A stretch of DNA of 64,000 nt, taken from the NCBI GenBank assembly GCA_965247115.1, contig CBDFGR010000003.1, positions 1,088,001-1,152,000 of the forward strand, given 5' to 3'. Of this stretch, positions 16,846 to 39,061 are shown piece after piece. The notes beneath the pieces are model-generated. The model made no database searches and was not told the origin of the DNA. It saw only the letters and a program-made list of their open reading frames with translations. Origin of the DNA: Myxococcota bacterium. GTDB lineage: Bacteria; Myxococcota_A; UBA9160; SZUA-336. Made by a program: the position numbers and the translations under genes. How positions within the stretch are numbered: position 1 is the stretch's first letter; each line of letters opens with the position of its first letter.

Positions 16846-18954
16846 ATGGCGATTCTCCCGCAGAGACGGCGTCTCAAGAAGGAGCTCACGCTTCTCAACG
16901 TCTACGCGATTGCCACGGGCACGACGCTGAGTGCGGGGTTCTTCCTGCTCCCTGGACTCGCTGCAGCGCAGATCGGCTCCACGCTGGTCTTGGCGTACCT
17001 GATCGCTGCCCTCCCTTTGATCCCCGCAATGTTCAGCGTTGTCGAGCTCGCAACAGCCATGCCTCGGGCCGGCGGCATCTATTACTTCCTGGACAGAAGT
17101 TTGGGTTCGTTCGTGGGCACGGTCGGTGGTATCGGAACCTGGCTAGCGGTGGCACTCAAAGCATCCTTCGCGCTGGTCGGGATGGGTGCGTACCTCGCCC
17201 TCTTCTTTCCGGAGCTTCCGGTCAAGCAGCTAGCGATCGGCTTCACGCTGACCATTGGCGCGCTCTGTCTCTACGGCGCGAAGACGAGTGGAGGCTTTCA
17301 GGTTCTCCTCGTTTCAGGCCTGCTCTGCATCCTCGCGGCCTTCGTCGGTGGCGGGCTACCGCTGCTCCAAGAGTCTCACTTCAGCGCTTTCTTCGAGCCT
17401 GGCGTGGGCTCGATCCTGTCCACGGCCGGGTTCGTGTACATCAGCTACGTAGGCGTTACGACCGTGGCGAGTCTCGCAGAGGAGGTGAAGGACCCAGAAC
17501 GAAACCTACCCCTTGGCGTGTTTCTCGCGCTGGGCACTGCGATTCTCGTGTACGGCCTGGGAACGGCAGTGATCGTGGGCCTGGTCCCACCCGACCGGCT
17601 CGCAGGAGACCTCACATCGGTTGCGACCGCCGCAGACATCCTGATCGGAGGGTGGGGCACGGTGCTGATCTCCGTCGCGGCGATCCTGGCCTTTACATCC
17701 GTGGCAAATGCCGGCCTGCTGAGCGCCTCGCGTTTGCCACTTGCGATGAGCCGCGACCATCTCGCGCATCCTGCCTTGCGACACCTTGGGCGACGCGGCA
17801 CGCCGACATACTCGATCCTGCTCACCGTCGGGCTCATCGTCATGATTCTGGTCTTCCTCGACCCGACGAACATCGCGAAGCTGGCCAGCGCCTTTCAGCT
17901 CACGGTCTTCGGCCTCGCCTCGGTGGCCGTCATCGTCATGCGCGAGAGCCGCATCGAGTCGTACGATCCAGGCTACCGCTCACCCGGCTACCCATGGATG
18001 CAGCTCTTCGGCGTAGCTGCCGCCGGCCTGCTGATCGTCGAGATGGGCACGGCACCCGCGCTCTTCTGTGCCGGGCTGATAGGGCTGAGCTCCGCCTACT
18101 ACTGGTTCTATGGCCGCGGGCGGACCGACCGCGCTGGCGCGATCTTCCACGTGTTCCAGCGCCTGGGCGAACGACGCTCGCTCGCATTGGATCCCGAGCT
18201 GCGCAGCCTCTTGAAGGAGAAGGGTCTTCGCGAGGAGGATCCCTTCGAGGAGGTCATCGCGCGCGCGGAGGCGATCGACGCGGAGGACGGGATGACGTTC
18301 GAAGACGTCGTGGAGCAAGCCTCTGAGTGTCTCGCGCGGCGCCTGCGTTACCCTGCAGGAAACCTGCGAGAGGGCTTCCTCCAGGGGACTCTGATCGGCG
18401 CGACGCCGGTCGAGCGCGGGGTCGCACTTCCCCACCTGAGAATGGCGGATGTGGATTCGCCGGAGCTGGTGCTCGTACGCTCGCGCGACGGAATCCATGT
18501 ATCGACCGGAAGCCTGCTCGGGACCCCCCACGCCCCTGAGCCCGTCTACGCGATGTGCTTCCTCGTGAGCCCCGAGCACGATCCGGCACGTCACCTACGG
18601 CTACTCGCCCAGATTGCGAGTCGGGTAGACCAGGACGACTTCCAGCCCGCCTGGCTCGAGGCCGCGGACGAGCACGCCCTAAAAGAGGTACTGCTGCGCA
18701 ACGAGCGCTTCCTCTCACTCGGCGTCCACAGGGGATCTCCGACGGAAGCCCTCCTGGGCCGAGCGATCCGCGAGATCTCGTTTCCCGACGGTTGCCTGGT
18801 CGCGATCGTCCGACGCAGCGACGAGGTCATCGTGCCGCGCGGGAGCACGGTGCTGCACGAAGGCGACTGGCTGACCGTGATAGGCACCCCCACGGGAATC
18901 CGGCGCTTACACCAGCAGTTCGTAGATGAGCGGGAGCGACCCAGCCAGGCTTGA
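16846..18954 (+). CDS. APC-family amino acid permease fused to PTS EIIA-like and TrkA_C (RCK_C) domains
   Basis: GTTLSAGFF, ELATAMPRAGG, AEEVKDPERNLP; GVALPHLR EIIA motif; C-terminal IVRRSDEVIVPRGSTVLHEGD. Confidence 0.85.
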   Translation: MAILPQRRRLKKELTLLNVYAIATGTTLSAGFFLLPGLAAAQIGSTLVLAYLIAALPLIPAMFSVVELATAMPRAGGIYYFLDRSLGSFVGTVGGIGTWLAVALKASFALVGMGAYLALFFPELPVKQLAIGFTLTIGALCLYGAKTSGGFQVLLVSGLLCILAAFVGGGLPLLQESHFSAFFEPGVGSILSTAGFVYISYVGVTTVASLAEEVKDPERNLPLGVFLALGTAILVYGLGTAVIVGLVPPDRLAGDLTSVATAADILIGGWGTVLISVAAILAFTSVANAGLLSASRLPLAMSRDHLAHPALRHLGRRGTPTYSILLTVGLIVMILVFLDPTNIAKLASAFQLTVFGLASVAVIVMRESRIESYDPGYRSPGYPWMQLFGVAAAGLLIVEMGTAPALFCAGLIGLSSAYYWFYGRGRTDRAGAIFHVFQRLGERRSLALDPELRSLLKEKGLREEDPFEEVIARAEAIDAEDGMTFEDVVEQASECLARRLRYPAGNLREGFLQGTLIGATPVERGVALPHLRMADVDSPELVLVRSRDGIHVSTGSLLGTPHAPEPVYAMCFLVSPEHDPARHLRLLAQIASRVDQDDFQPAWLEAADEHALKEVLLRNERFLSLGVHRGSPTEALLGRAIREISFPDGCLVAIVRRSDEVIVPRGSTVLHEGDWLTVIGTPTGIRRLHQQFVDERERPSQA

Positions 18955-23231: not shown

Positions 23232-24710
23232 TCACCGCGCGACCGTCTCCAGCGTGCGGTAGAGGAACTCGACCGCCCAGGCGAGTGCGGGGAGTGGGAC
23301 CCGCTCGTTGTCTCCGTGCATGCGGAGCTCATCCTGCTCCACCAACGGAAACGGCAGGATGCCGTACGTCGGGATTCCACGGGCGCGCAGAGCGGCGCCG
23401 TCCGTCGCACCCGCGGACATGAACGGCATGACGACAGCACCAGGAGCCATGTCCCCGCTCGTCTCCTCGAGCGCTCGAAAGAGGGCAGTCCCGACCGGCG
23501 AAACCGGAGGCGAGCTCCGCGGCTCGCCAACCAGCGCAAAGGTTACCGCCGCCTCTCCGCCGGCTGCCTGCATGCCAGTCACGATCTCGCCTACGTCATC
23601 GCCGGGAAGCACGCGCACGTTGAAGGTCGCCACGCCTTCCGAGGGGATCACGTTCGCCCGAATTCCCCCACTGATCAGTGTAAGTGCCTGGCCGGTTCGG
23701 AGCATCGTGTTGTGCAGTGGGTTTCGTGACAGGATCTCGGCAGCCGCCATCGAGCGGGGCGAGGCGTCTCCCACCAGGTCCAGCATGGCCTGGCGGAGCA
23801 TCCCATCCGACTCGATCTCGGCCAATCGACCAAAGTACAAGCGCGTGGTCTCGTTCAGCCGGACCGGAGCGCGCCAGGCGTGGACGCGTCCCAACGCGCG
23901 CGCGAGCGCCGCAAGGGCGTTGTCCGGCAGCGGCACGGAGCCGTGCCCGCTGGGACCAAGCGCTCGGACCTCTACGTCGTAATAGATCTTCTCGGTGGTC
24001 TGGATGCTGACCGAGCGGATCTCGCCGCTGGTTATTCGGATGCGGCCGCCCTCGTTCAATGCAAACTCGGGATCTCCGAGCAGCGCGAGATGCTCTGCGA
24101 GCACGACATCTACTCCAACCGGGTCGCCCCCTTCCTCGGCAGCGGTGGCGAGGAGGACGACGTCGCGCGAAAGCTGGTCGCGCCGCTCGGCCAGGGACTG
24201 CAGCGCCGCCACAGCAGCTGCCAGCATTCCCTTGTCATCGATCGCACCTCGGCCATACAGATAACCGCCGCGGATCGCGGGTGAGAAGGGAGGGCTGTCC
24301 CACTTGTCCGGCTGCGCCCCCACCACATCCATGTGCCCCATCACGAGGACGGGACGCTCCGTTGGCTGCCCTGCGCGCACCCGCGCGACGAAGTTCGCGC
24401 GTCCTTCCCCAACCGGGAGCACGTGCGTCTCGACACCGTCGGCGTCGTTGAGTACGGACTCGAGATAGAGCGCGCTCGAGAGCTCGTTCCCTGGCGGGTT
24501 CTGGGTGTCGATTCTGATCAGCGCCTCCAGATGTGCCAGGGTACGCGCCGCGGCTGCCGGGCGGTCGAAGCCCTGCGGCGCCGGGGCGACCAGCGTCCAC
24601 GGGCCTGTCGCTGCATGCAGGACGGCAGCGCGTATGCCGAATGCCGCTGCAAGGGAGAAGCTCAGTACGACGAGGAATAGCAGTCGAACCATCCGGGACC
24701 TCGGACGCAC
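23232..24710 (-). CDS. Exported M20 family metallo-amidohydrolase/peptidase
   Basis: Metal ligands GHMDVV, GAIDDKG, AAEEGG, LNEGG, MHGDNE; N-terminal hydrophobic signal; start may be 24692. Confidence 0.9.
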   Translation of the reverse strand: MRPRSRMVRLLFLVVLSFSLAAAFGIRAAVLHAATGPWTLVAPAPQGFDRPAAAARTLAHLEALIRIDTQNPPGNELSSALYLESVLNDADGVETHVLPVGEGRANFVARVRAGQPTERPVLVMGHMDVVGAQPDKWDSPPFSPAIRGGYLYGRGAIDDKGMLAAAVAALQSLAERRDQLSRDVVLLATAAEEGGDPVGVDVVLAEHLALLGDPEFALNEGGRIRITSGEIRSVSIQTTEKIYYDVEVRALGPSGHGSVPLPDNALAALARALGRVHAWRAPVRLNETTRLYFGRLAEIESDGMLRQAMLDLVGDASPRSMAAAEILSRNPLHNTMLRTGQALTLISGGIRANVIPSEGVATFNVRVLPGDDVGEIVTGMQAAGGEAAVTFALVGEPRSSPPVSPVGTALFRALEETSGDMAPGAVVMPFMSAGATDGAALRARGIPTYGILPFPLVEQDELRMHGDNERVPLPALAWAVEFLYRTLETVAR

Positions 24711-24728: not shown

Positions 24729-26844
24729 CTAGATACTAGCTCGACGGTCTCCGATAATCCTCGTCGGTTCCAGCGCGAGCTCGTGGTCCATGCTCCCGAT
24801 GAGCTCCGCACGATGTGTGACAACCACTCGAGTCACGTCGAGCTTTCCAATCTCTTCGTTGATCTGGGCCTCCAGTCGGGCATCCAGGTTCGACGTCCAC
24901 TCGTCGAGGAACAACACGCGAGGCTCTCTATAGAGCGCTCGGGCGAGCAGCACGCGCTGACGCTGTCCAGCGGACAGCATGCTCCCCATGTCGCCGATCT
25001 GGCTGTCGTACTGCATGGGCATGCTGGCGATCTCTCGATGAATCGCCGCCGTCTCCGCGCAGGAACGGATTCTGTCGGCGTCGCGCTCCACGTCGAACAA
25101 GCAGATGTTGTCCGCGATCGAGCCCGAAAGAAGCTGGTCGTTCTGCATGACCGCCGCGATCTGATGGCGATAAGTGCTCAATCCGAGCTGATCCAGACGC
25201 GTTCCGTCTACCCGTACCTCGCCCGAGCTCGGCGAAAGGAGCCCGAGCAGGAGCTTGATGAGCGTAGTCTTGCCACAGCCGGAAGGTCCCGTGATGGCGA
25301 TCGACTGGCCACGCTCGATCGTGAGGTTGAGACCCTCCAGGACCGGTGGGTCAGAGGCAGCGTAGCGGAACCCGAGGTCTACGAGCTCGATGCAGCCATC
25401 GACTCGTCTCGGACGCGAGCCGTTCGCAGGAGACCCGTCCTCCGCGCGGGTCAGCGCAATGTCCGCCACGCGGACGAGATGCAAGTCCAGCATCCGGAGC
25501 TCGATCGCCTGGTCAATCAGCGCGGAGAGCCTCGTCGTGAACTGACCCTTGTAGGACATGAACGCGAAGAGCATCCCGACCGTGAGCTCGTGGCTCAGGA
25601 CCAAGGTGGCTCCGAGGTAGATCACGGCCACGTTCTCGAGGCCGAAGAGAACGCCGCGGATCGCATCCTGACCGATAGCCAGCCTTCCTAGCCGGACACC
25701 TGCATTCAGCTGAGCGGCGTGGCGATTCTGCCAGACCACCTCACGATCCGACTCGCAGCCGAACACCTTGATGCTTTGCAGGGCCCGGAGCGTCTCGAAC
25801 ACGCTCGAGTCCTCCCTTGCGCCGGCCACGATCTGTTCCTCCGAGAGATCCTTGAGAGGAGCGTAGAAAGCGATGCGCGTGAACCAGTACAGGGTCACGG
25901 AGGCGAGTACGACCGAGGACAGCACCGGGCTGTAGGCGAGGATCATGGCGAGGGTCGCGAGCGCCATCAGCCCATTCGATCCCGACGGTGACCAACCCGG
26001 TGGTGAAGAGCCTGGTGATCGGCTCGAGCGAGCCGAAGCGGGAAACAACGTCTCCCAGGTGGCGCTTCTCGAAGTACGAGATGGGAAGTCGCAGCAGGTG
26101 GTGAAACAGGTTCGAGACGATCTGAAAGCCGAGCTCCGACCCCAGCCGCAAAACGAGCCATGAGCGCAGCGCCCTGGTCCCCAGATGGATCAGCATCAGA
26201 AGCACGAACGCCAGGGCGAGTAGCGAGAGAAGGTCCCGATCGCGCCTCGCGAGGCCCTCATCCACCACGAGCTGCATGTAGAACGGGCTCGCCAGCGCGA
26301 AGACCTGGAGGACCAGCGACACGACGAAGAGCTGAGCGAGAGCGCCCTTCAAGCCCGAGGCACGTCTCCAGAGATCCGCCAGCTGGAGCTTCTCGCTGCT
26401 GGGGCCGGGCTCGAATCCGTCCATGGGCAGGAGCTCCAGGGCCACCCCGGTCAGGTGTGGTGACGCCTCCCGAAGCGAGTAGGTCCGTCTGCCGAGGGCC
26501 GGATTGTGGACGACGATTCCGCGGCGTGAGGCGCTCCTCAGCACGACGAAGTGCGTCGCGTCCCAGTGCAGGATGGCCGGTGTCCTCAGTGCGCAGAGCT
26601 CATCCAGGGCGATCCGGAGGGGTCGGCAGCTCAGGCCGAGCTGGCTCGCCGTCAGCATGAGGGACTTGAGGCTGGTGCCTCGAAGCGACGCCGCGTGATC
26701 ACGCCGCAGAGAAGTCAGGTCGGTCTGGCGTCCGTGATAGCTCGCGACCATTGCAAGGCACGCCAGTCCGCACTCGGCCGCTTCCGTCTGAAGGAGCACA
26801 GGAAGTGCGGAGCGCCTCGAGAAGCGCAGCGCGGCGCTACTCAT
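24729..26844 (-). pseudogene. C39 peptidase-containing ABC transporter (CvaB-like), split by a +1 frameshift at 25975-25976 (may be a sequencing error)
   Basis: QTEAAECGLACLAM and HWDATHFVVL peptidase domain in one frame; GPSGCGKTT, LSAGQRQR, LDEWTS in another. Removing one T restores ...VGIDGLMALA... and a 704-aa ORF. Confidence 0.88.
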
Positions 26845-27773
26845 TCGGCGGCTCTCCAGAACTCCGGAAGGCGGTGCCATAGCAGCCACTCACCGGGCCG
26901 CGCACGGATCCAGCCCTCCGCTCGAGCCGCGAGCTGTCGCATGATGCGCGCGCTCGCGAGGGCCACGTCCTCGCCGTCGAGGACTCGTGCCAGCATGGGC
27001 CTTTCGAAGTGCACGACCTCTCGTCCGAGCTCGTCCGCATAGCTGACCGCTGGCAGAATGACCGCTCCAGCCAGCAGGGCGAGCAAGGCCGCGCCTGCGG
27101 GGAGTCGTGCGCTTCGGCCGAACAGCGGCACTACAACCGAGCGACCGGTTCCGAACGCGAGTGGCGTATCGAACTGTATGAGGAGCGTGTTGCCGGCGCG
27201 TAGCTCCAGCCAGGCTTTGAGGCCCGGCCGGTCCGAGAAGGGGATCGCGCCTACCTCGACACCGGCTGGTGCGAGCCGTCGGTAGGCAAGCTCTTCACGC
27301 CCGGTCCACTCTCGCAGCGTGATGACGCGGATCTGTCGGCCGGGCGGCGAGATCCGAACCAGCTTCGCGAACCCGCGCAGATAGCTGCCCATGTGAATCG
27401 TCGCCACCACGAGCGGGGTGCTCTCGCTCGGACCTACACGATCGCCGAGCTCGACACCGCTGTACGCGAACCCCTCTCCCCTGACGTCGACGCTATCTGC
27501 CAGCTCGACCGCGCGCGCCCGGCTCCCCAGGATGAGGTCGCGATAGTCACAGTGAAAGGAACAGGCGCGGTGAAATTGCTGCAGCGCGATGCGCCTCGCC
27601 TCGCGCGGAGACTCGTCCAGCGCCAGCTCTACGATCCGAGCAGCGCGGCGATGCGCCGAGCGCCCACACGTTGCGTAGGCTGCACCACCTAGCACCCGCG
27701 CGCAGCTTCGAGCGAGGGTCGCAGGGAGGTGCGAGGCGAGGAGCGTAGCCACAGAGACGATCCAACCAGGCAT
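26841..27773 (-). CDS. LpxL/HtrB-like (LPLAT superfamily) acyltransferase
   Basis: VVATIHMGSY, LLIQFD, VPLFGRSARLPAGAALLA, WIRARPGEWLLWHR; stop overlaps the transporter start (ATGA). Confidence 0.78.
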   Translation of the reverse strand: MPGWIVSVATLLASHLPATLARSCARVLGGAAYATCGRSAHRRAARIVELALDESPREARRIALQQFHRACSFHCDYRDLILGSRARAVELADSVDVRGEGFAYSGVELGDRVGPSESTPLVVATIHMGSYLRGFAKLVRISPPGRQIRVITLREWTGREELAYRRLAPAGVEVGAIPFSDRPGLKAWLELRAGNTLLIQFDTPLAFGTGRSVVVPLFGRSARLPAGAALLALLAGAVILPAVSYADELGREVVHFERPMLARVLDGEDVALASARIMRQLAARAEGWIRARPGEWLLWHRLPEFWRAAE

Positions 27774-27800
27774 GACCGTCGCAGGCTCGGCCCTGTGCGC

Positions 27801-28130
27801 TTACCAGCAGGCGGCAGGCTTGCCGCCATCCCCGCCCGAAAATGGAGCTCCGAAACTCATCATGCCGATGAAGCTCGAAATAGTATCCGTCACGTGCAGG
27901 GTGCCGACGGCCGCGTTGTAGGTCTTGCCGGGGTTGTCGTAGGCGTAACCAGCGACCTGGCCCCCGATCTCGCTGGTCAGCCCCATCGTCATGGTGGTCG
28001 CAAAGCCGCCGCAAGGCAGGCACATTCCGTACCCGAGGCCCAAACCGGCTAGCTGGCCTGCACTCACTGCGATCTGCCGCCCATCCCCACCGGACACGAA
28101 CTCGACCTCGGCTGGCGTCAACTCACGCAT
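27801..28130 (-). CDS. Double-glycine-leader bacteriocin/microcin-like precursor (15-aa leader + 94-aa core)
   Basis: Leader MRELTPAEVEFVSGG, strong AGGAGG RBS, Gly-zipper core, adjacent to a C39 exporter. Confidence 0.85.
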   Translation of the reverse strand: MRELTPAEVEFVSGGDGRQIAVSAGQLAGLGLGYGMCLPCGGFATTMTMGLTSEIGGQVAGYAYDNPGKTYNAAVGTLHVTDTISSFIGMMSFGAPFSGGDGGKPAACW

Positions 28131-28734
28131 TTCTTCCTCCTGTTTCTCTTGGTCTGACGTTGATGAGAGGGCCCAGCAGCCACCCGATTAGGGAGCGCCG
28201 CTCGACGGTGATCTGCGTGCTGAGGCGCATCCCGGCGCGCAGCGGGACCTGCCTGCCGTGCACGACGAGCTCGTGCTCGACCAGCTCCACTGTGACGCGG
28301 TGTACCGGTTCCTCGATCACGATGGGGAGCTGCGGATCCCGTGGGAGCAGGATCGCCTCACTGACTTCACGCACCCGACCCCGGAAGCTGCCAAAGCGCG
28401 GGGATGGGAACGCATCGTAGTGCAGCCAGACCTGCTGGCCGGGCCCCAGAGAGCCGAAGGCGCGCGTCGGAACGTACAGCTCTGCGTGCAGCCCAGCACT
28501 TGCCGGTACGAGCGAGACGTCTGATTCACTCGCGCGCCCGAGTGACAGAACTCCTCGGACCGTCACCTGTCTTGCGTAGTGGCCCCAGACAAGCAGAGCG
28601 CCGAGCGCGCTACACGTGCATATGGCAAACACCGTCACCAGCGAGAGCCCAAGCGGCTGCGTCAGGATTACACCGCCCCAGATCGATGCGCTAGAGCGTG
28701 CGGTGGCTTCTTCTCGAAATAGCGTTTCCCTCAC
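28123..28734 (-). CDS. CvaA/HlyD-like membrane fusion protein, internally shortened (~203 aa)
   Basis: LFREEA...WGGVIL, TM helix, YARQVTVRG, then directly AELYVPTRAFG...GQQV.LHYDAFP..RFG...G.V..VS and LRAGM...ERRSLIGWLLGPL; GTG start inferred. Confidence 0.8.
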   Translation of the reverse strand: MRETLFREEATARSSASIWGGVILTQPLGLSLVTVFAICTCSALGALLVWGHYARQVTVRGVLSLGRASESDVSLVPASAGLHAELYVPTRAFGSLGPGQQVWLHYDAFPSPRFGSFRGRVREVSEAILLPRDPQLPIVIEEPVHRVTVELVEHELVVHGRQVPLRAGMRLSTQITVERRSLIGWLLGPLINVRPRETGGRNA

Positions 28735-28768
28735 TGCTCTCTGAGTGGAGCGAGCGGGGCACAAGGTG

Positions 28769-29068
28769 TCAGCATCGGTCAGACCTCCGCTTCGTCGGAG
28801 CCAGCGGCAAGCACGCACGACATAGCAAGAGTGCGCCGAGTACCAATAGTGTCGTCAGGCCGAGCCGGAGTCCGACCGAGAGCCCACCGCCAAGCAGCGT
28901 CGCCACGACGGCAACCGGCACCATGGCGACCAGACTCCAGATCGTCTCTTGCCGGGAACGGAAGTTGGAGCTCGATCCGCAGCGTGGACAGAGGTAGGGA
29001 CGACTCCGCGAGATCGCCAGCAAGCTCCAGGCCGTCGGCCGTCGTCCGCAGCTCGGACACTGCGCCAT
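28769..29068 (-). CDS. Small CxxC-x19-CxxC zinc-ribbon membrane protein (TIGR04104-like)
   Basis: CPSC and CPRC followed by two hydrophobic helices. Confidence 0.65.
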   Translation of the reverse strand: MAQCPSCGRRPTAWSLLAISRSRPYLCPRCGSSSNFRSRQETIWSLVAMVPVAVVATLLGGGLSVGLRLGLTTLLVLGALLLCRACLPLAPTKRRSDRC

Positions 29069-32805: not shown

Positions 32806-33867
32806 CTACGTCGAGCAGCCCCGGGGGCAGTGACCTTGGATCGCGAAGCGCGCCATGTGTGCGGCCCCATAGTCCTGCAACGCCGCGAGGTGATTATGCC
32901 CGCGACAGCGGAGCTCGATTCGGTCGATCGAGTGCCGCTTCGCCCTGGCCCACGGGTCGATGTGATGGAACTCGAGAAAATCGCGCGAGCCGCAGCGGCG
33001 ACCATTCGGACCGGCGAACGCACACCGACCCCCGTCCCGCGCGACAACGGCGCGCTTGATCTCCGCCGGAATGTGCCGAGATGCGGTTCCGGGCTTCTTC
33101 GCACTCTTCGACCGACCTCGGGGTCTCGATGTCAGGGCGAACTTCTTCCGCTTCGCGTCCTCGAGCAGCAACGCTAGGGCTCGACCGAAGATCTCCGCGA
33201 GGTCGCCGTCTGGAATTTGGTTGCGGAGCAGCGCCTGCGCCTCACGCAGCTTCCCGCAGAGCGTCTCGCTGCCAGTGAACTGGATCTTGAACCGCTTGCC
33301 GCCGAGCGGGCCCGGGACCGGACTCGGTGCGCGCCGCACCGTAGGCGTGGCGACCCCCTCGCAACTCGTCACCTCGCGCGAAGACTCCGCGATCTCCAAG
33401 GGCATCCGGACCGCAGAGGCCGACCTGGGAACGGGTAGCTTCCTGACCTGCCCAGGCACATCCGGGTTCGGAGCGCGGTCCGCAAGGAGCTCTTCGATCG
33501 CACGCTTGCTCTTGTGGCGCGCCAGGTCGAGCAGCTCCCCGTGGTTCTCCGGAGTGAGCCTGGGAGCGAGCAGGTTCGCTCCCGCCAGATGAAGCGCGCC
33601 CTCGCGAATTCGCTCGAGCAGGAGCGGATATGAGCGCGCAGCTCGCGCGGCGCCAATCCGGTGAAACGCCGTCGCCTCCGAGAAGTGGAGCACCTCGGTG
33701 CAGTAGCGATACATCGAGGAGTAGCCCTGTTCGAGATAGAGCTTGCGCTGGTCGACCTCCGCAAGATACCCGAGCAGATCCGCCTCGTCCTGGCGACTCT
33801 TCGCTACCAGCTCGTCGAGGCCTCGAAGCAGCTTGTGGTCGGAAACGGTATTGAGAGAAATCTTCAT
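32806..33867 (-). CDS. HNH endonuclease with DUF222-like N-terminal region
   Basis: GYSSMYRYCTEVLHFSE N-terminal motif; SRHIPAEIKRAV..RDGGRC...C...LEFHHID...CRGHN. Confidence 0.85.
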   Translation of the reverse strand: MKISLNTVSDHKLLRGLDELVAKSRQDEADLLGYLAEVDQRKLYLEQGYSSMYRYCTEVLHFSEATAFHRIGAARAARSYPLLLERIREGALHLAGANLLAPRLTPENHGELLDLARHKSKRAIEELLADRAPNPDVPGQVRKLPVPRSASAVRMPLEIAESSREVTSCEGVATPTVRRAPSPVPGPLGGKRFKIQFTGSETLCGKLREAQALLRNQIPDGDLAEIFGRALALLLEDAKRKKFALTSRPRGRSKSAKKPGTASRHIPAEIKRAVVARDGGRCAFAGPNGRRCGSRDFLEFHHIDPWARAKRHSIDRIELRCRGHNHLAALQDYGAAHMARFAIQGHCPRGCST

Positions 33868-34501: not shown

Positions 34502-37500
34502 ATGTCCGACACTCACGACCTGCAAACCGCCAAAGAGCGGGTAGAGCGGGTATTCCGCTACCTCATGGAGATGCATCAGGTGAGGACCCCACCGGTCGTC
34601 CGGCTCGACGACCGAGAGTGGATCCTCAGGATCGACGACATACCGGAATCGGCGTACCTGCTCAAAGGCTACGATCCGGTCGACGAGAACGCGACTGCAT
34701 TTACGCGATCCCCTGGCGACTTCCTCATCAAGGTCGGGCGGCCAAAGGAAACCGAGTGCCCGGAGCCCTCGGTGGTCATCAAGAACTGGCTCCGCGCCGG
34801 CTGGGATGACGTGGACACGGATCCGGAGTCGATCGCACGCAAGACTCGCAAGAGCTCCACGGGGAGCGAGGAATCCTTCTCGGACTCGGAGGACCGAGTC
34901 GAGGCTCTGGCAGAGTTCCTCGAGGCAAAGAAGTCATGGGCCAGCGAGGAGCGGGGGGCCATCGATGCCCTCGGCGTCTTCTCGGAACTCTTCGAGCTGC
35001 ACGTGAAGCTGCAGCGTGAAGCGGAGAAGTACCAGCTCTTTCTCGGAGACGGGATTCTGGTGTTGGACCACCCTGCAGGGAAGGTGCACCACCCCACCCT
35101 GCTCCAGCGAGTCGAGCTCAAGTTCGATGCAGGCATTCCGGAATTCACGATCGTCGAGACCGACAGTCCGGAGGTCTACACACCGCTTCTCCGACACGTG
35201 GACATCGCCGGGAAGGCCATCCGCGCGCTCAGCGATACCCTCGCGGGCATGGACTTCCACCCGCTTGGGGGCGAGTCTACGAGCCAGTTCCTGAAGGACT
35301 TCGTCCAGCGCTTCTGGACGAACGGTCAGTACTTCGAGAACGAGCTCGAGGTCGAGAGCCCGAGTGGCCCGTATCTCTACCGGCAGCCACAGCTGTACCT
35401 CGGCTACCGGAATTACGGTCTGGGGGACAACATCGCGCGCTATCTCGACACGATCCCGGACCTGACCGAGCTCCCGGAGTCTTTGTATCGCGTCGTCGGC
35501 ATCGACACGGGCCGATCGGCCGAGCGGGCGGAGGATGCGAACCCGACGGACGTCCTGCTCACGAAGCACGCGAACAGGGAGCAGGAGCAGGTCATCCGCC
35601 GGCTGGAGGAAACCGGCGCGGTGATCGTCCAGGGTCCCCCCGGGACCGGCAAGAGCCACACGATCGCGAACCTCATCGGCCACCTCCTGGCTCAGAACAA
35701 GAGCATCCTCGTGACGAGCCACGCCTCGAAGGCCCTGCGCGTGGTCCGCCAGCAGCTCGCAAAGCCGCTCCAGTCGCTCTGCGTGAGTGTGTTGGAGAGC
35801 GACGAGGAGAGCAGCCGCCAGCTCGAGGAGTCGATCACCGGCATCGTCAACTATCTGGCATCGACCGGTGAGAACAAGCTCACGAAGGATATCGAGCGGC
35901 TGACCGAAGCGCGCGAGACGCTCAGTCGCGAACAGAAGGAGCTGCGCGTCCGACTGCTCGAAGCCGTCAAGGGCGAGTACCGGGAGCTTGAGGTTCTGGG
36001 CGAGAGCGTCACGCCTGCCGAAGCGGCGCGGAAGATGGCAGAGCTCGCGGGAACGGACGACTGGATTCCCGGACCGTTGCCCGAGGGTGCGGATCCGCCA
36101 CTCTCGAGCTCCGAGATCCACGAGCTCTACGCGCTGAACGCGAAGCTCACTGCCGAGGACGAGAACGTCCTACACTCCGAGCTTCTGGACCTCGGAGCGT
36201 TTCCAAGCGCAAAGGACTTTGCAGCGCTCTACGACGAGCTCTCGGAGCTCGACCGGATGAGCCTCAAGACCGGCGCAGAGTTCTGGCTCAACGACGATCA
36301 GAACACGGCCACACTGCGCGAGCTGCTGCAGGCGCTGACGCACGCGGGGGAGACCCTCGCCGCGGACGCTGCGGGAGAGCTTCTCGAGAGCGACGCCGAC
36401 TGGATCCGCGACTGCCTCGAGGCCGGCCGTGTGGGTGGAGAGCGCGCTCAGTCATGGCGCGAGCTGCGCGAGCTGATCGAGGCCTGCAGCAGCGACACGG
36501 CGGACAAGGAGCCGCTCACGCTGGAATACGGGCCGAGTGTCGAGGGCGACATACCGCAGAGCGAGCTCGCCGAGACGTGTAGGGCCATCCTGAAGCACTT
36601 CGAATCAGGCAGGGAGCTCTCGAAGCTCGCTCTGATCAGGCACCCGGAGTGGGGCGATCTGATCGCCTCCACGCGCGTCGACACCGGCGCCCCGGCGGAG
36701 GCCCTGCACTTCCAGGCGATCCTGCACCATCTGGAGATTCGCGCCTGGCGCGACCGCCTGGGGCAGCGCTGGGACCGGCAGATGCTTCCCTTCGGCCTCC
36801 CCGAGTTTGCCGCGCTCGGTCCGGCGCCCGAGCGGGAGGCCCGGCGTTACGCCGAGGGCATCGCGCTGGCACTGACGTGGCACCCCGAGATCTGGTCGAC
36901 GTGCGAGTCCAAGCTCGAAGAAGCAGGACTCGACTGGACGCGGCTCTCGAGGAAGACCGCCAGCCGTGCGTCGCGCAAGAGCGAGCTCCAGCGAACGCGC
37001 GAGCTCACCACCGAACGCATTGAGCCCCTGATCGAAGCCAGGATCGGCTTCCTGCGCAAGAAGAGCCTCGAAGCGCGGAAGGGGTACTGGCTGGGCGAGC
37101 TCGAGCCCTTCTCCAAGAAGGACGCCATCTACCCACTGACCAAGCAGCTCGCGACGGGGATCAAGAAGGGCAACTACGACACGTACAGCGTCGCGAGAGA
37201 CCGGCTCGAGCAGCTGATGGAGCTGCGACCGAGCTTCGCACGGCGCGAGGAGCTGCTTGACGGACTGGCCGCCGTGGCGCCGGGCTGGGCGAGCGCTGTC
37301 CGCGAGCGGCATGCACCCCACGCCGACGGCGCAGCGCCGGGTGATGTCGAAGGGGCATGGCGCTACCGCCAGTGGGAGCAGCACCTCGCCCGCCAGGCAG
37401 CGCTGGATCTCGACGAGCTGCAGGAGCAGCTCGACCTGGTGACCGACAAGCTGATCGGGGTCACGGCAGACTACGTCGAGAAGCTCTCCTGGCAAGCGCA

Positions 37501-39061
37501 GCTGCGGCGGACCGGTCTGAAGCAGCAGCAAGCGCTCAACGGCTGGCTCGGGCTCCACAAGAAGATCGGCAAGGGCACCGGAAAGCACGTCCCGCGGCTC
37601 AAGGAAGAGGCCAGGCGCACCCTGGTAGAGTGCCGCACCGCGGTTCCCGTCTGGATCATGCCGCTCTCGAGGGTGGTCGAATCCTTTGACCTCGCGACCA
37701 CGCGCTTCGACGTCGTCATCATCGACGAGGCCAGCCAGAGTGACGTCATGGGTCTCGTGGCCTTCGCGCTCGGCAAGGAAGTCGTCGTCGTCGGTGATCA
37801 CGAGCAGGTGAGCCCCTATGCCATCGGCCAGCGCGGGGAGCGGATCCACGCGCTGATTGACGAGATTCTGAGGGAGATACCGAACAAGCAGCTCTACGAC
37901 GGCAAAACCTCCGTCTACGACCTGGCACGTCAGTCGTTCGGTGCCACGATCCGCCTGGTGGAGCACTTCCGCTGTGTTCCCGACATCATCCAGTTCAGCA
38001 ACCAGCTCTGCTACGGTGGCGAGATCCGGGCACTGCGCGAGGCCTCTTCCGGTCGCGTCTACCCCCACCTGATTGCGCATCGGGTCGAGAACGGGACCAA
38101 CTCCAACGGGGTCAACAAGGCCGAGGCGCTCGAGATCGCGGCGCTCGTCTCGGCGATCTGCCGCCTCGACGAATACAAGGATTCCACGATCGGCGTCATC
38201 TGCCTGGTCGGAACGGATCAGGCGCTCTATATCGACTCGCTGCTGCGGATGCGCCTGACCGTCTCCGAGTACCAGAAGAGACGCATTCTGTGCGGCAACG
38301 CCTCGCAGTTTCAGGGCGATGAGCGGGACATAATCCTGCTCTCCATCGTGAACTCGCCCTCAAAGCGTCCCCTCATGCTGCGGCAACGGGACGATGCCAA
38401 GAAAGTCTTCAACGTGGCGGCCAGCCGAGCACGGGACCAGCTCTGGGTCGTGCACTCCCTCGATCCTGGCCGTGACCTGAAACACGGCGACTTGCGGCTG
38501 CGGCTCATCTCGCACGCCGAGAACCCTGAGGCCTTGCGTGCAAAACCGATCGAAGAAAAGAAGCGGTTCAACTCTGAACTCGAGAAACGGGTGTTCCAGG
38601 GTCTCAAGAACGCAGGACATCGCCTGACGCACCGCTACCAGGTAGGGGAGTACACGATCGACCTCGTCGTCGAGGGCGAGGAGGGGAAACGCGTCGCCGT
38701 TCAATGCGACGGAGATCGTACTCAGACGATGGAGGCGCTGACGGAGGAAATGGACCGCCAGCTGACCCTGGAGAGGCTGGGCTGGGAGTTTATCCGTGTG
38801 CGCGGAACCGAGTTCTTCAGCGATCCGGCGCGTGTGCAGAAGAAGTTGACGAAGCGGCTGGCGGAGCTCGAGATCCGTCCTCGAAGAGCGGCGGCGAAGG
38901 GCGAGCGGAGCAAGGAGGAGCCTCTCGATGTCCGCGTCGTCAAGCGCGCGGAGATGATCCGGAGCCGCTGGAAGGACATCCCGACGGTGACCTCGATACG
39001 CAGAAAGGCGGCAGTCCGCGCCGAAGACACTTCTGGCGCCGAGGAGGCCTCTGAGGAGTAG
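34502..39061 (+). CDS. SF1 (DNA2/NAM7-like) helicase with C-terminal Vsr/DUF559-like (MTES_1575-type) nuclease domain
   Basis: QGPPGTGKS, DEASQ, VGDHEQ, EHFRC, FQGDERD, NVAASRARDQ; C-terminal SELE...IDLVVEG...QCDG...RQ..LERLGWEFIRVRG. Confidence 0.88.
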   Translation: MSDTHDLQTAKERVERVFRYLMEMHQVRTPPVVRLDDREWILRIDDIPESAYLLKGYDPVDENATAFTRSPGDFLIKVGRPKETECPEPSVVIKNWLRAGWDDVDTDPESIARKTRKSSTGSEESFSDSEDRVEALAEFLEAKKSWASEERGAIDALGVFSELFELHVKLQREAEKYQLFLGDGILVLDHPAGKVHHPTLLQRVELKFDAGIPEFTIVETDSPEVYTPLLRHVDIAGKAIRALSDTLAGMDFHPLGGESTSQFLKDFVQRFWTNGQYFENELEVESPSGPYLYRQPQLYLGYRNYGLGDNIARYLDTIPDLTELPESLYRVVGIDTGRSAERAEDANPTDVLLTKHANREQEQVIRRLEETGAVIVQGPPGTGKSHTIANLIGHLLAQNKSILVTSHASKALRVVRQQLAKPLQSLCVSVLESDEESSRQLEESITGIVNYLASTGENKLTKDIERLTEARETLSREQKELRVRLLEAVKGEYRELEVLGESVTPAEAARKMAELAGTDDWIPGPLPEGADPPLSSSEIHELYALNAKLTAEDENVLHSELLDLGAFPSAKDFAALYDELSELDRMSLKTGAEFWLNDDQNTATLRELLQALTHAGETLAADAAGELLESDADWIRDCLEAGRVGGERAQSWRELRELIEACSSDTADKEPLTLEYGPSVEGDIPQSELAETCRAILKHFESGRELSKLALIRHPEWGDLIASTRVDTGAPAEALHFQAILHHLEIRAWRDRLGQRWDRQMLPFGLPEFAALGPAPEREARRYAEGIALALTWHPEIWSTCESKLEEAGLDWTRLSRKTASRASRKSELQRTRELTTERIEPLIEARIGFLRKKSLEARKGYWLGELEPFSKKDAIYPLTKQLATGIKKGNYDTYSVARDRLEQLMELRPSFARREELLDGLAAVAPGWASAVRERHAPHADGAAPGDVEGAWRYRQWEQHLARQAALDLDELQEQLDLVTDKLIGVTADYVEKLSWQAQLRRTGLKQQQALNGWLGLHKKIGKGTGKHVPRLKEEARRTLVECRTAVPVWIMPLSRVVESFDLATTRFDVVIIDEASQSDVMGLVAFALGKEVVVVGDHEQVSPYAIGQRGERIHALIDEILREIPNKQLYDGKTSVYDLARQSFGATIRLVEHFRCVPDIIQFSNQLCYGGEIRALREASSGRVYPHLIAHRVENGTNSNGVNKAEALEIAALVSAICRLDEYKDSTIGVICLVGTDQALYIDSLLRMRLTVSEYQKRRILCGNASQFQGDERDIILLSIVNSPSKRPLMLRQRDDAKKVFNVAASRARDQLWVVHSLDPGRDLKHGDLRLRLISHAENPEALRAKPIEEKKRFNSELEKRVFQGLKNAGHRLTHRYQVGEYTIDLVVEGEEGKRVAVQCDGDRTQTMEALTEEMDRQLTLERLGWEFIRVRGTEFFSDPARVQKKLTKRLAELEIRPRRAAAKGERSKEEPLDVRVVKRAEMIRSRWKDIPTVTSIRRKAAVRAEDTSGAEEASEE

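Follow-up and report, generated by a model that had tools for sequence, protein, structure and literature searches.

What does an acyltransferase related to lipid A enzymes do in an operon otherwise laid out for the export of a small peptide? The question is raised by a 64,000-nucleotide stretch of a Myxococcota bacterium (GTDB lineage Bacteria; Myxococcota_A; UBA9160; SZUA-336; assembly GCA_965247115.1, contig CBDFGR010000003.1, positions 1,088,001 to 1,152,000 of the forward strand), here called the window. Five of its minus-strand genes encode, in order, a zinc-ribbon membrane protein, a CvaA-type adaptor, a double-glycine (GG) precursor peptide, an acyltransferase (AT) and a C39 peptidase-ABC exporter (Table 1). 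This order had been read earlier from the sequence alone, together with the spacing of the genes (an 8-nt overlap between adaptor and precursor, a 27-nt gap between precursor and AT and an ATGA overlap of AT and exporter at 26841-26844) and a 94-residue precursor core with two Lys and three Cys, and all of these were confirmed. The sequence-only reading further proposed that the AT fatty-acylates the core. We favour, with a probability of roughly 0.55, a more specific reading: a new class of RiPPs (peptides made on ribosomes and then modified), the lipo-microcins, in which an LPLAT-fold enzyme would have been repurposed as an O-/S-acyltransferase of the C-terminal Ser or Cys of diverse GG peptides. 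In OM182/Pseudohongiella-type gammaproteobacteria, a cassette of fatty acyl-AMP ligase (FAAL), acyl carrier protein (ACP) and diiron enzyme would provide several precursors, encoded at scattered places in the genome, with an oxidatively tailored fatty acid.

An acyltransferase family beside peptide exporters

The AT of the window matched PF03279 at 35.7 bits (cut-off 22.3), in agreement with the LpxL-like assignment made earlier. It reached 12-33 bits on the lipid A acyltransferase equivalog models, whose cut-offs are 209-540, and thus falls outside LpxL/LpxM; the ordinary PF03279 gene of the window genome lies on another contig (180 vs 32 bits). LPLAT enzymes use acyl-ACP or acyl-CoA as donor, with activation of a hydroxyl. 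The best solved relatives of the AT profile are PatA (E=1e-22) and then LpxM, and the structure model (pLDDT 93.8) gave the same two as best folds in Foldseek (E about 1e-10, TM 0.6). His127 is kept in 144/151 and Asp202 in 150/151 aligned rows; PatA His126 aligns with His127 and, on our reading, Glu200 with Asp202 after a two-column gap shift. The fold and the His/acidic pair place the AT in the LPLAT/PF03279 superfamily, although the acid of the HX4D/E motif is absent from the family (the window AT reads HMGSYL). Excerpts of PMC9597891 describe a dyad of His and a distal acid in LPLAT enzymes, and show that VexE is active though it lacks the motif acid. The family stands apart from ordinary PF03279 proteins in a FastTree tree (support 0.945); a single low-scoring outsider, L015, falls within it. 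By sequence and predicted fold the AT is a member of a separate PatA/LpxL-fold family with a conserved predicted catalytic pair, His127/Asp202. A complex prediction of AT and precursor scored 0.00.

A profile search at E<=1e-10 yielded 191 representatives of the family. Close relatives of the window AT were present only in two same-genus genomes among 60 relatives searched. Profile searches of 400 genomes from the class of G061 and 400 from the phylum of the window genome returned no new family members among the five candidates scored per genome, so these counts are floors; the one extra match, in G1012, groups outside the family in the tree. A plasmid search gave three weak matches.

Gene neighbourhoods were collected by a degenerate DNA motif scan (46 GTDB loci and 52 JGI metagenome loci, two sets that overlap and contain many relatives), and loci with >150 bits on the profile were counted as family loci. 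A similar motif at the protein level matches 46/151 representatives, so that the survey takes in part of the family. The C39 exporter adjoins the AT in 30/32 GTDB family loci, the other two being cut by contig ends, and in 24/32 of the metagenome family loci; a C39 exporter or an HlyD adaptor is found nearby in 31/32 and 29/32, respectively. Neither was seen in the non-family PF03279 loci of the same scans (0/14 GTDB, 0/16 metagenome), and four metagenome motif matches were due to chance. The earlier reading had allowed that the closest homologues might sit in lipid A loci; they recur instead with GG peptides and C39 exporters, across many uncultured bacteria. An unbiased check covered 401 genomes of one gammaproteobacterial order, 54 of which hold C39 genes, at 58 places; a family AT is present in 8 of the 57 loci fetched, two of these ATs being divergent (112-114 bits).

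Many of the loci also encode fatty-acid machinery. FAAL is present in 20/32 GTDB and 20/32 JGI family loci, ACP in 21/32 and 23/32, and an AurF-like diiron gene, in divergent orientation, in 21/32 and 16/32, which indicates that a dedicated acyl donor is at hand in many of them. The AMP-binding protein has its best scores on FAAL models, below their cut-offs, and the diiron enzyme matches the AurF Pfam family, its nearest solved structure being aldehyde-deformylating oxygenase (E=8e-6). The cassette is held by a clade of long ATs, mostly from Pseudohongiella and related gammaproteobacteria by record title.

Within the cassette loci some variation was noted. A P450 lies beside the AurF-like gene in one FAAL-ACP cassette (L056:1581-6209), suggestive of more acyl-chain tailoring. 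Two long-AT loci (L042:4856-6255 and L073:7276-7536) have an ACP, and L042 also the diiron gene, with no adjacent FAAL. Two records titled Klebsiella (L037, L048) carry the FAAL-ACP-AT-C39 cassette and a tree position among Pseudohongiella-type sequences, so their titles may be mislabels. The N-terminal extension of the long ATs (P0068 residues 15-185) is confidently modelled as helical with one beta-hairpin and gave no fold match; it co-occurs with the FAAL/ACP cassette and one may speculate that it docks the ACP, while its identity as a RiPP recognition element finds no support in this structure. Two family ATs (P0042, P0052) have a fused C-terminal GNAT-like domain with weak Acetyltransf_4 matches.

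The C-terminus of the precursors and the site of acylation

The precursor of the window has a 15-residue leader, MRELTPAEVEFVSGG, within the range of class II microcin leaders (15-18 residues ending in GG or GA), and AGGAGG stands upstream of its gene. Its match to MccV is weak (E=0.04), and it is the sole convincing GG-leader open reading frame (ORF) of two regular-expression matches in the window genome. In the alignment of its orthologues C37/C40 (a CxxC motif) and the last Trp are invariant, while residue 108, across 10 aligned rows, is Cys in eight, Ser in the most distant one (49% identical) and Arg in one.

Precursors beside family ATs share the leader, and their cores split into several unlike groups. 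For 24 distinct AT-side peptides, Ser is the last residue in 18, and Ser or Cys occurs within the last two positions in 23; for 14 peptides beside AT-less exporters both figures are 1/14. Counted by cluster the pattern holds in 7/8 AT-side against 1/11 AT-less clusters (Fisher p=0.001, overstated by kinship), and a looser, hand-picked AT-less list of 26 peptides has one that ends in Ser and two with Ser in the last two positions. The peptides of the divergent L184/L185 loci end in VKS, and in G062 and G063, where the AT locus has no adjacent precursor, all seven distant GG peptides end in Ser. Ser and Cys replace one another between homologues (NNS in L075 vs NNC in L108; CW vs SW in the window orthologues); a terminal Cys/Ser swap at the modification site is reportedly found in the glycocins F and ASM1.

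After the idea had been noted, five more AT-positive genomes and ten comparison genomes were taken as a follow-up test. The 12 peptides from the AT-positive genomes, some of which are homologues of the training peptides, comprise nine with a Ser end, one with a Cys end and two with Ser at the penultimate position. Six peptides of the comparison genomes passed the filter, one ending in Ser and three with Ser in the last two positions; no AT was found in the five of the ten comparison genomes that were searched for it.

The link of the AT to peptide export, which is at the core of the earlier proposal, therefore stands, with its GG/C39 association and the FAAL and ACP genes of many loci; among the core residues that it had listed, Lys finds no support as a target and the evidence points to the C-terminal Ser or Cys, as 15/24 AT-side cores are without Lys and neither Lys of the window core is invariant in the orthologues. 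From these patterns it seems quite probable that the peptide undergoes some modification by the AT, and a little better than an even bet that the site is the C-terminal Ser/Cys side chain, in O- or S-linkage. For the window peptide Cys108 is the predicted acceptor.

Several observations weigh against a C-terminal acylation of peptides by this family. In L158 an AT of 148 bits is paired with a peptide ending RRKHH, a plain counterexample, and the window peptide, ending Cys-Trp, represents the weaker end of the Ser/Cys rule, with one orthologue that ends Arg-Trp. A precursor is missing next to many of the ATs, and searches of G064 and G065 gave no convincing GG precursor. Presence in the last two residues is a weaker criterion, which 3/6 comparison peptides also satisfy; kinship among loci inflates the apparent independence of the counts, and the leader model was derived from AT-side peptides. 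A sister subclade (L078, L097, L118) is without C39 and lies beside a peptidase-less ABC exporter. To these are added the described substrates of LPLAT enzymes, all lipids or sugars in the literature covered and considered next, and the frameshift and triad change of the window operon with further lesions in other samples, taken up in the following section.

The alternative that survives best, although we regard it as unlikely, is that a lipid or small molecule receives the acyl group from the AT, as self-protection by envelope remodelling or as a co-produced lipid, and that the peptide itself stays unmodified, like a class IIa microcin. PatA, LpxL/M and VexE act on glycolipids or sugars according to excerpts of PMC9597891, and the C39-less sister subclade sits with a ketosynthase. 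Such a role would leave unexplained why Ser ends accompany the AT and are rare without it; moreover, glycosyltransferase and head-group genes are missing from the recurrent neighbours of the family loci, and the window genome has its separate, ordinary PF03279 gene. The operons of the sister subclade may represent another system for a lipopeptide or a lipid: L118:763-8938, and in part L078:698-4190, has TolC-MacAB-type genes, AT, ABC exporter and ketosynthase, and L097:2232-6309 has AT, ABC exporter and an S9 peptidase. No precursor was identified in these three loci.

Slightly less probable still is acylation of the peptide at another place (at Lys, at a Ser/Thr within the core or at the N-terminus), with the terminal Ser/Cys serving uptake or recognition. 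The window core offers two Lys, six Ser and eight Thr, L158 has a peptide without terminal Ser/Cys, and the known lipo-RiPPs carry their acyl group on Lys/Orn or the N-terminus in the excerpted text of PMC13647313. Against this stand the scarcity of Lys noted above, a free N-terminus that would arise only on export, and the C-terminus itself, which is the clearest common feature of otherwise unlike cores.

Two kinds of GG peptides deserve separate mention. A pair of short tandem GG precursors with cores of 35 and 40 residues recurs in L028 (10969-11303), L035, L045, L052, L083 and L190, an arrangement resembling two-peptide bacteriocins. In L139:3031-3231 a GG peptide has a Ser/Gly-rich tail like that of class IIb microcins; its neighbours are a C39 exporter without AT and an Rce1-like protease.

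Condition of the operon in the genus

Table 1. Features of the operon and its downstream neighbour, with positions in the window.
Feature	Position	Strand	Remarks
Zinc-ribbon membrane protein, candidate immunity protein	28769..29068	-	CxxC-20-CxxC and hydrophobic tail; TIGR04104
Shortened HlyD/CvaA-type adaptor, 203 aa	28123..28734	-	Membrane anchor and C-terminal domains; TIGR01843 partial match
Double-glycine precursor, 109 aa	27801..28130	-	Leader 28086-28130; 94-aa Gly/Ala-rich core; C-terminal AACW
Cys108 codon, penultimate residue, predicted acyl acceptor	27807..27809	-	Inferred from the C-terminal Ser/Cys pattern
LPLAT-fold (PatA/LpxL-like) AT, 310 aa	26841..27773	-	PF03279; His127 and Asp202 predicted catalytic pair
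C39 peptidase-ABC exporter (CvaB-type), +1 frameshift near 25975	24729..26844	-	PF03412
M20 peptidase, operon membership uncertain	23232..24710	-	PF01546; hydrophobic N-terminus

The operon had been taken as intact, and in this respect the window departs from the earlier description, its exporter being frameshifted and its adaptor shortened. The identity of the exporter holds (PF03412, 103 bits), while its single intact ORF does not: one extra base near 25975 divides it into ORFs 25741-26844 and 24729-26048. The base is present in contigs of two runs of one sample, possibly the source of the window, and in none of six runs of six other samples. Since the extra base recurs in contigs of two runs, an assembly error is the less likely cause, though these may be the source data themselves. 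It is likely, judging from the sequence, that the frameshift abolishes export in this sample; the C39 gene of the operon is the only one in the window genome. The orthologous exporters are intact in G001 and G002 (709 aa in G002). In the C39 triad Cys and His are kept and the third position is Asn instead of Asp, as in 4/55 C39 exporter domains counted, the G002 copies included; Cys-His-Asp is listed as the conserved triad in excerpts of PMC10233263.

The adaptor was rightly typed as CvaA-like, but it is not of the full form: starting from GTG at 28734 (the longest ORF reaches 28818), it is without the lipoyl-hairpin-lipoyl segment of full-length adaptors to which it was aligned. The bridge to TolC by a full membrane fusion protein is thus absent here, and full-length adaptors are present in distant family loci; TolC-type genes lie elsewhere in the window genome. 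The zinc-ribbon protein scores 31.7 bits on TIGR04104, under the cut-off of 45. Relatives of it come after the precursors in five distant loci (L028, L035, L045, L052, L083), and those of L028 and L045, which were scanned, match TIGR04104 weakly.

Such damage raises the alternative, in our view a distinctly improbable one, that the cluster in this genus is a decaying remnant without secreted product, whatever the family does elsewhere. Besides the frameshift, the short adaptor and the triad Asn, it can point to the zinc-ribbon gene, mostly deleted in the same-genus genome G002, and to lesions in single low-depth contigs of other samples (exporter in X5, AT in X11, zinc ribbon in X7). The short adaptor is, however, a clean in-frame form common to six close clusters (72-98% identity), and X6 and X8 lack the extra base and are otherwise free of lesions. 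The ratio of non-synonymous to synonymous substitution (dN/dS) against G002 is 0.24 for the precursor, 0.27 for the AT and 0.14-0.17 for the exporter, inside the 0.08-0.33 of five flanking genes, and 0.45 for the adaptor. By this measure the operon genes are under purifying selection relative to G002. The sequencing-run search listed no RNA runs.

The M20 peptidase starts 18 nt downstream of the exporter, with the same linkage in G001, and is absent at the site in G002; it is not among the recurrent neighbours of the family loci. Elsewhere in the window (34502-39061) an SF1-type helicase of 1519 aa, with a REase_MTES_1575 nuclease domain at its C-terminus, is a possible defence or repair gene. 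A 353-aa ORF (32806-33867) has no Pfam match at 1e-5, shows an HNH-like C-terminal motif by eye and has no counterpart in the G002 alignment, so it may be mobile. A third gene (16846-18954) fuses PTS EIIA and TrkA-C domains to an amino-acid permease.

Relation to known systems and a possible pathway

The closest likeness is to the class IIa microcins (microcin/colicin V: CvaC, Cvi, CvaA, CvaB, TolC), which share the 15-residue GG leader, the hydrophobic Gly/Ala-rich core, the C39-ABC exporter, the fusion protein and a small membrane immunity candidate; the window genome has TolC homologues elsewhere. In contrast to these microcins, for which excerpts of PMC10233263 give no modification beyond disulfides, the operon holds an AT, and its adaptor is shortened in the genus. 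With the class IIb siderophore microcins (E492, H47, M) it shares the predicted modification at the C-terminal serine of a GG-leader peptide. It differs from them in lacking siderophore genes and an 8-residue Ser/Gly tail, the window peptide ending AACW, and in an LPLAT-fold enzyme with an apparent acyl-ACP donor; siderophore-attachment genes are absent among the recurrent neighbours. MceI and MchD are HlyC-like. The least probable of the alternatives is a class IIb-like one, in which FAAL, ACP and diiron enzyme make a lipid or hydroxy-acyl unit, the AT builds or links that unit and the C-terminal carboxylate forms an ester with it: class IIb microcins are modified at the C-terminal serine (excerpts of PMC10233263) and the hydroxyl could come from the diiron enzyme and P450, but FAAL is the sole carboxylate-activating enzyme among the recurrent neighbours, Ser-ending peptides also occur in short-AT loci without FAAL or diiron gene (L026, L032, L041, L096), the Ser/Cys swap fits a side-chain nucleophile and the siderophore type of Ser/Gly-rich tail is missing.

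Selidamides, lipolanthines, goadvionins, lipoavitides and aphotorhaptins combine a ribosomal precursor with fatty acyl transfer, some with dedicated fatty-acid machinery, and in the excerpted part of PMC13647313 the acylation of all fatty-acylated RiPP families is given as the work of GNAT enzymes, which N-acylate Lys/Orn or the N-terminus. Unlike these, our loci have a PF03279 enzyme with the PatA fold, a predicted O-/S-acyl bond, no conserved Lys and no recurrent lanthionine or azole enzymes. PatA, LpxL/LpxM and VexE are alike in fold and in the pair of His and distal acid; the AT differs in its 15-20% identity to them, the missing HX4D/E acid, its separate clade and its peptide-exporter context. 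RaxX/RaxST/RaxB of Xanthomonas also joins a GG peptide, a single group-transfer modification and peptidase-ABC secretion, the modification there being tyrosine sulfation (excerpts of 10.1101/442517) and the predicted one here acylation. In the open PMC and bioRxiv text searched, no account of a peptide cluster with a PF03279/LPLAT enzyme was found, subscription papers being outside the scope of the search. By sequence the cluster lies outside class IIb and the GNAT lipo-RiPP families, and departs from the canonical class II layout in the full adaptor; its gene content is that of a class II microcin system plus a tailoring enzyme, and it would work as such.

For the lipo-microcins a pathway may be proposed. 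The precursor would be made with its 15-residue leader, and the membrane-bound AT, by means of His127/Asp202, would acylate the C-terminal side chain before export, the acceptor being the terminal Ser hydroxyl or Cys thiol and the donor acyl-ACP. In the window peptide the CxxC would form a disulfide and Cys108 would stay free. Short-AT loci, the window included, would use housekeeping acyl-ACP. FAALs are enzymes that load ACPs, and in long-AT loci a dedicated ACP would be loaded by the FAAL of the locus, with the AurF-like diiron enzyme tailoring the ACP-bound chain. As established for the exporter family, C39 transporters cleave after the GG of the leader during export. Immunity may come from the zinc-ribbon membrane protein. 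With the short adaptor of the genus a connection to TolC is not to be expected; the lipopeptide would then remain within the periplasm or the envelope, or exit otherwise. The product is likely, by inference from the gene content, a lipidated class II microcin acting against other bacteria.

The significance of the finding rests on the AT family and not on the damaged copy in the window. Named strains among the record titles (LSUCC0112, Pseudohongiella sp. O18) make the idea directly testable. The acceptor rule is apparently minimal, a terminal Ser/Cys on unrelated cores, and the AT could therefore serve as a portable tool for C-terminal peptide lipidation. If the proposal is true, it would give class II microcins a third type of modification, open a new route to ribosomal lipopeptides and make peptides a new substrate class for an enzyme family whose described substrates are lipids and sugars.

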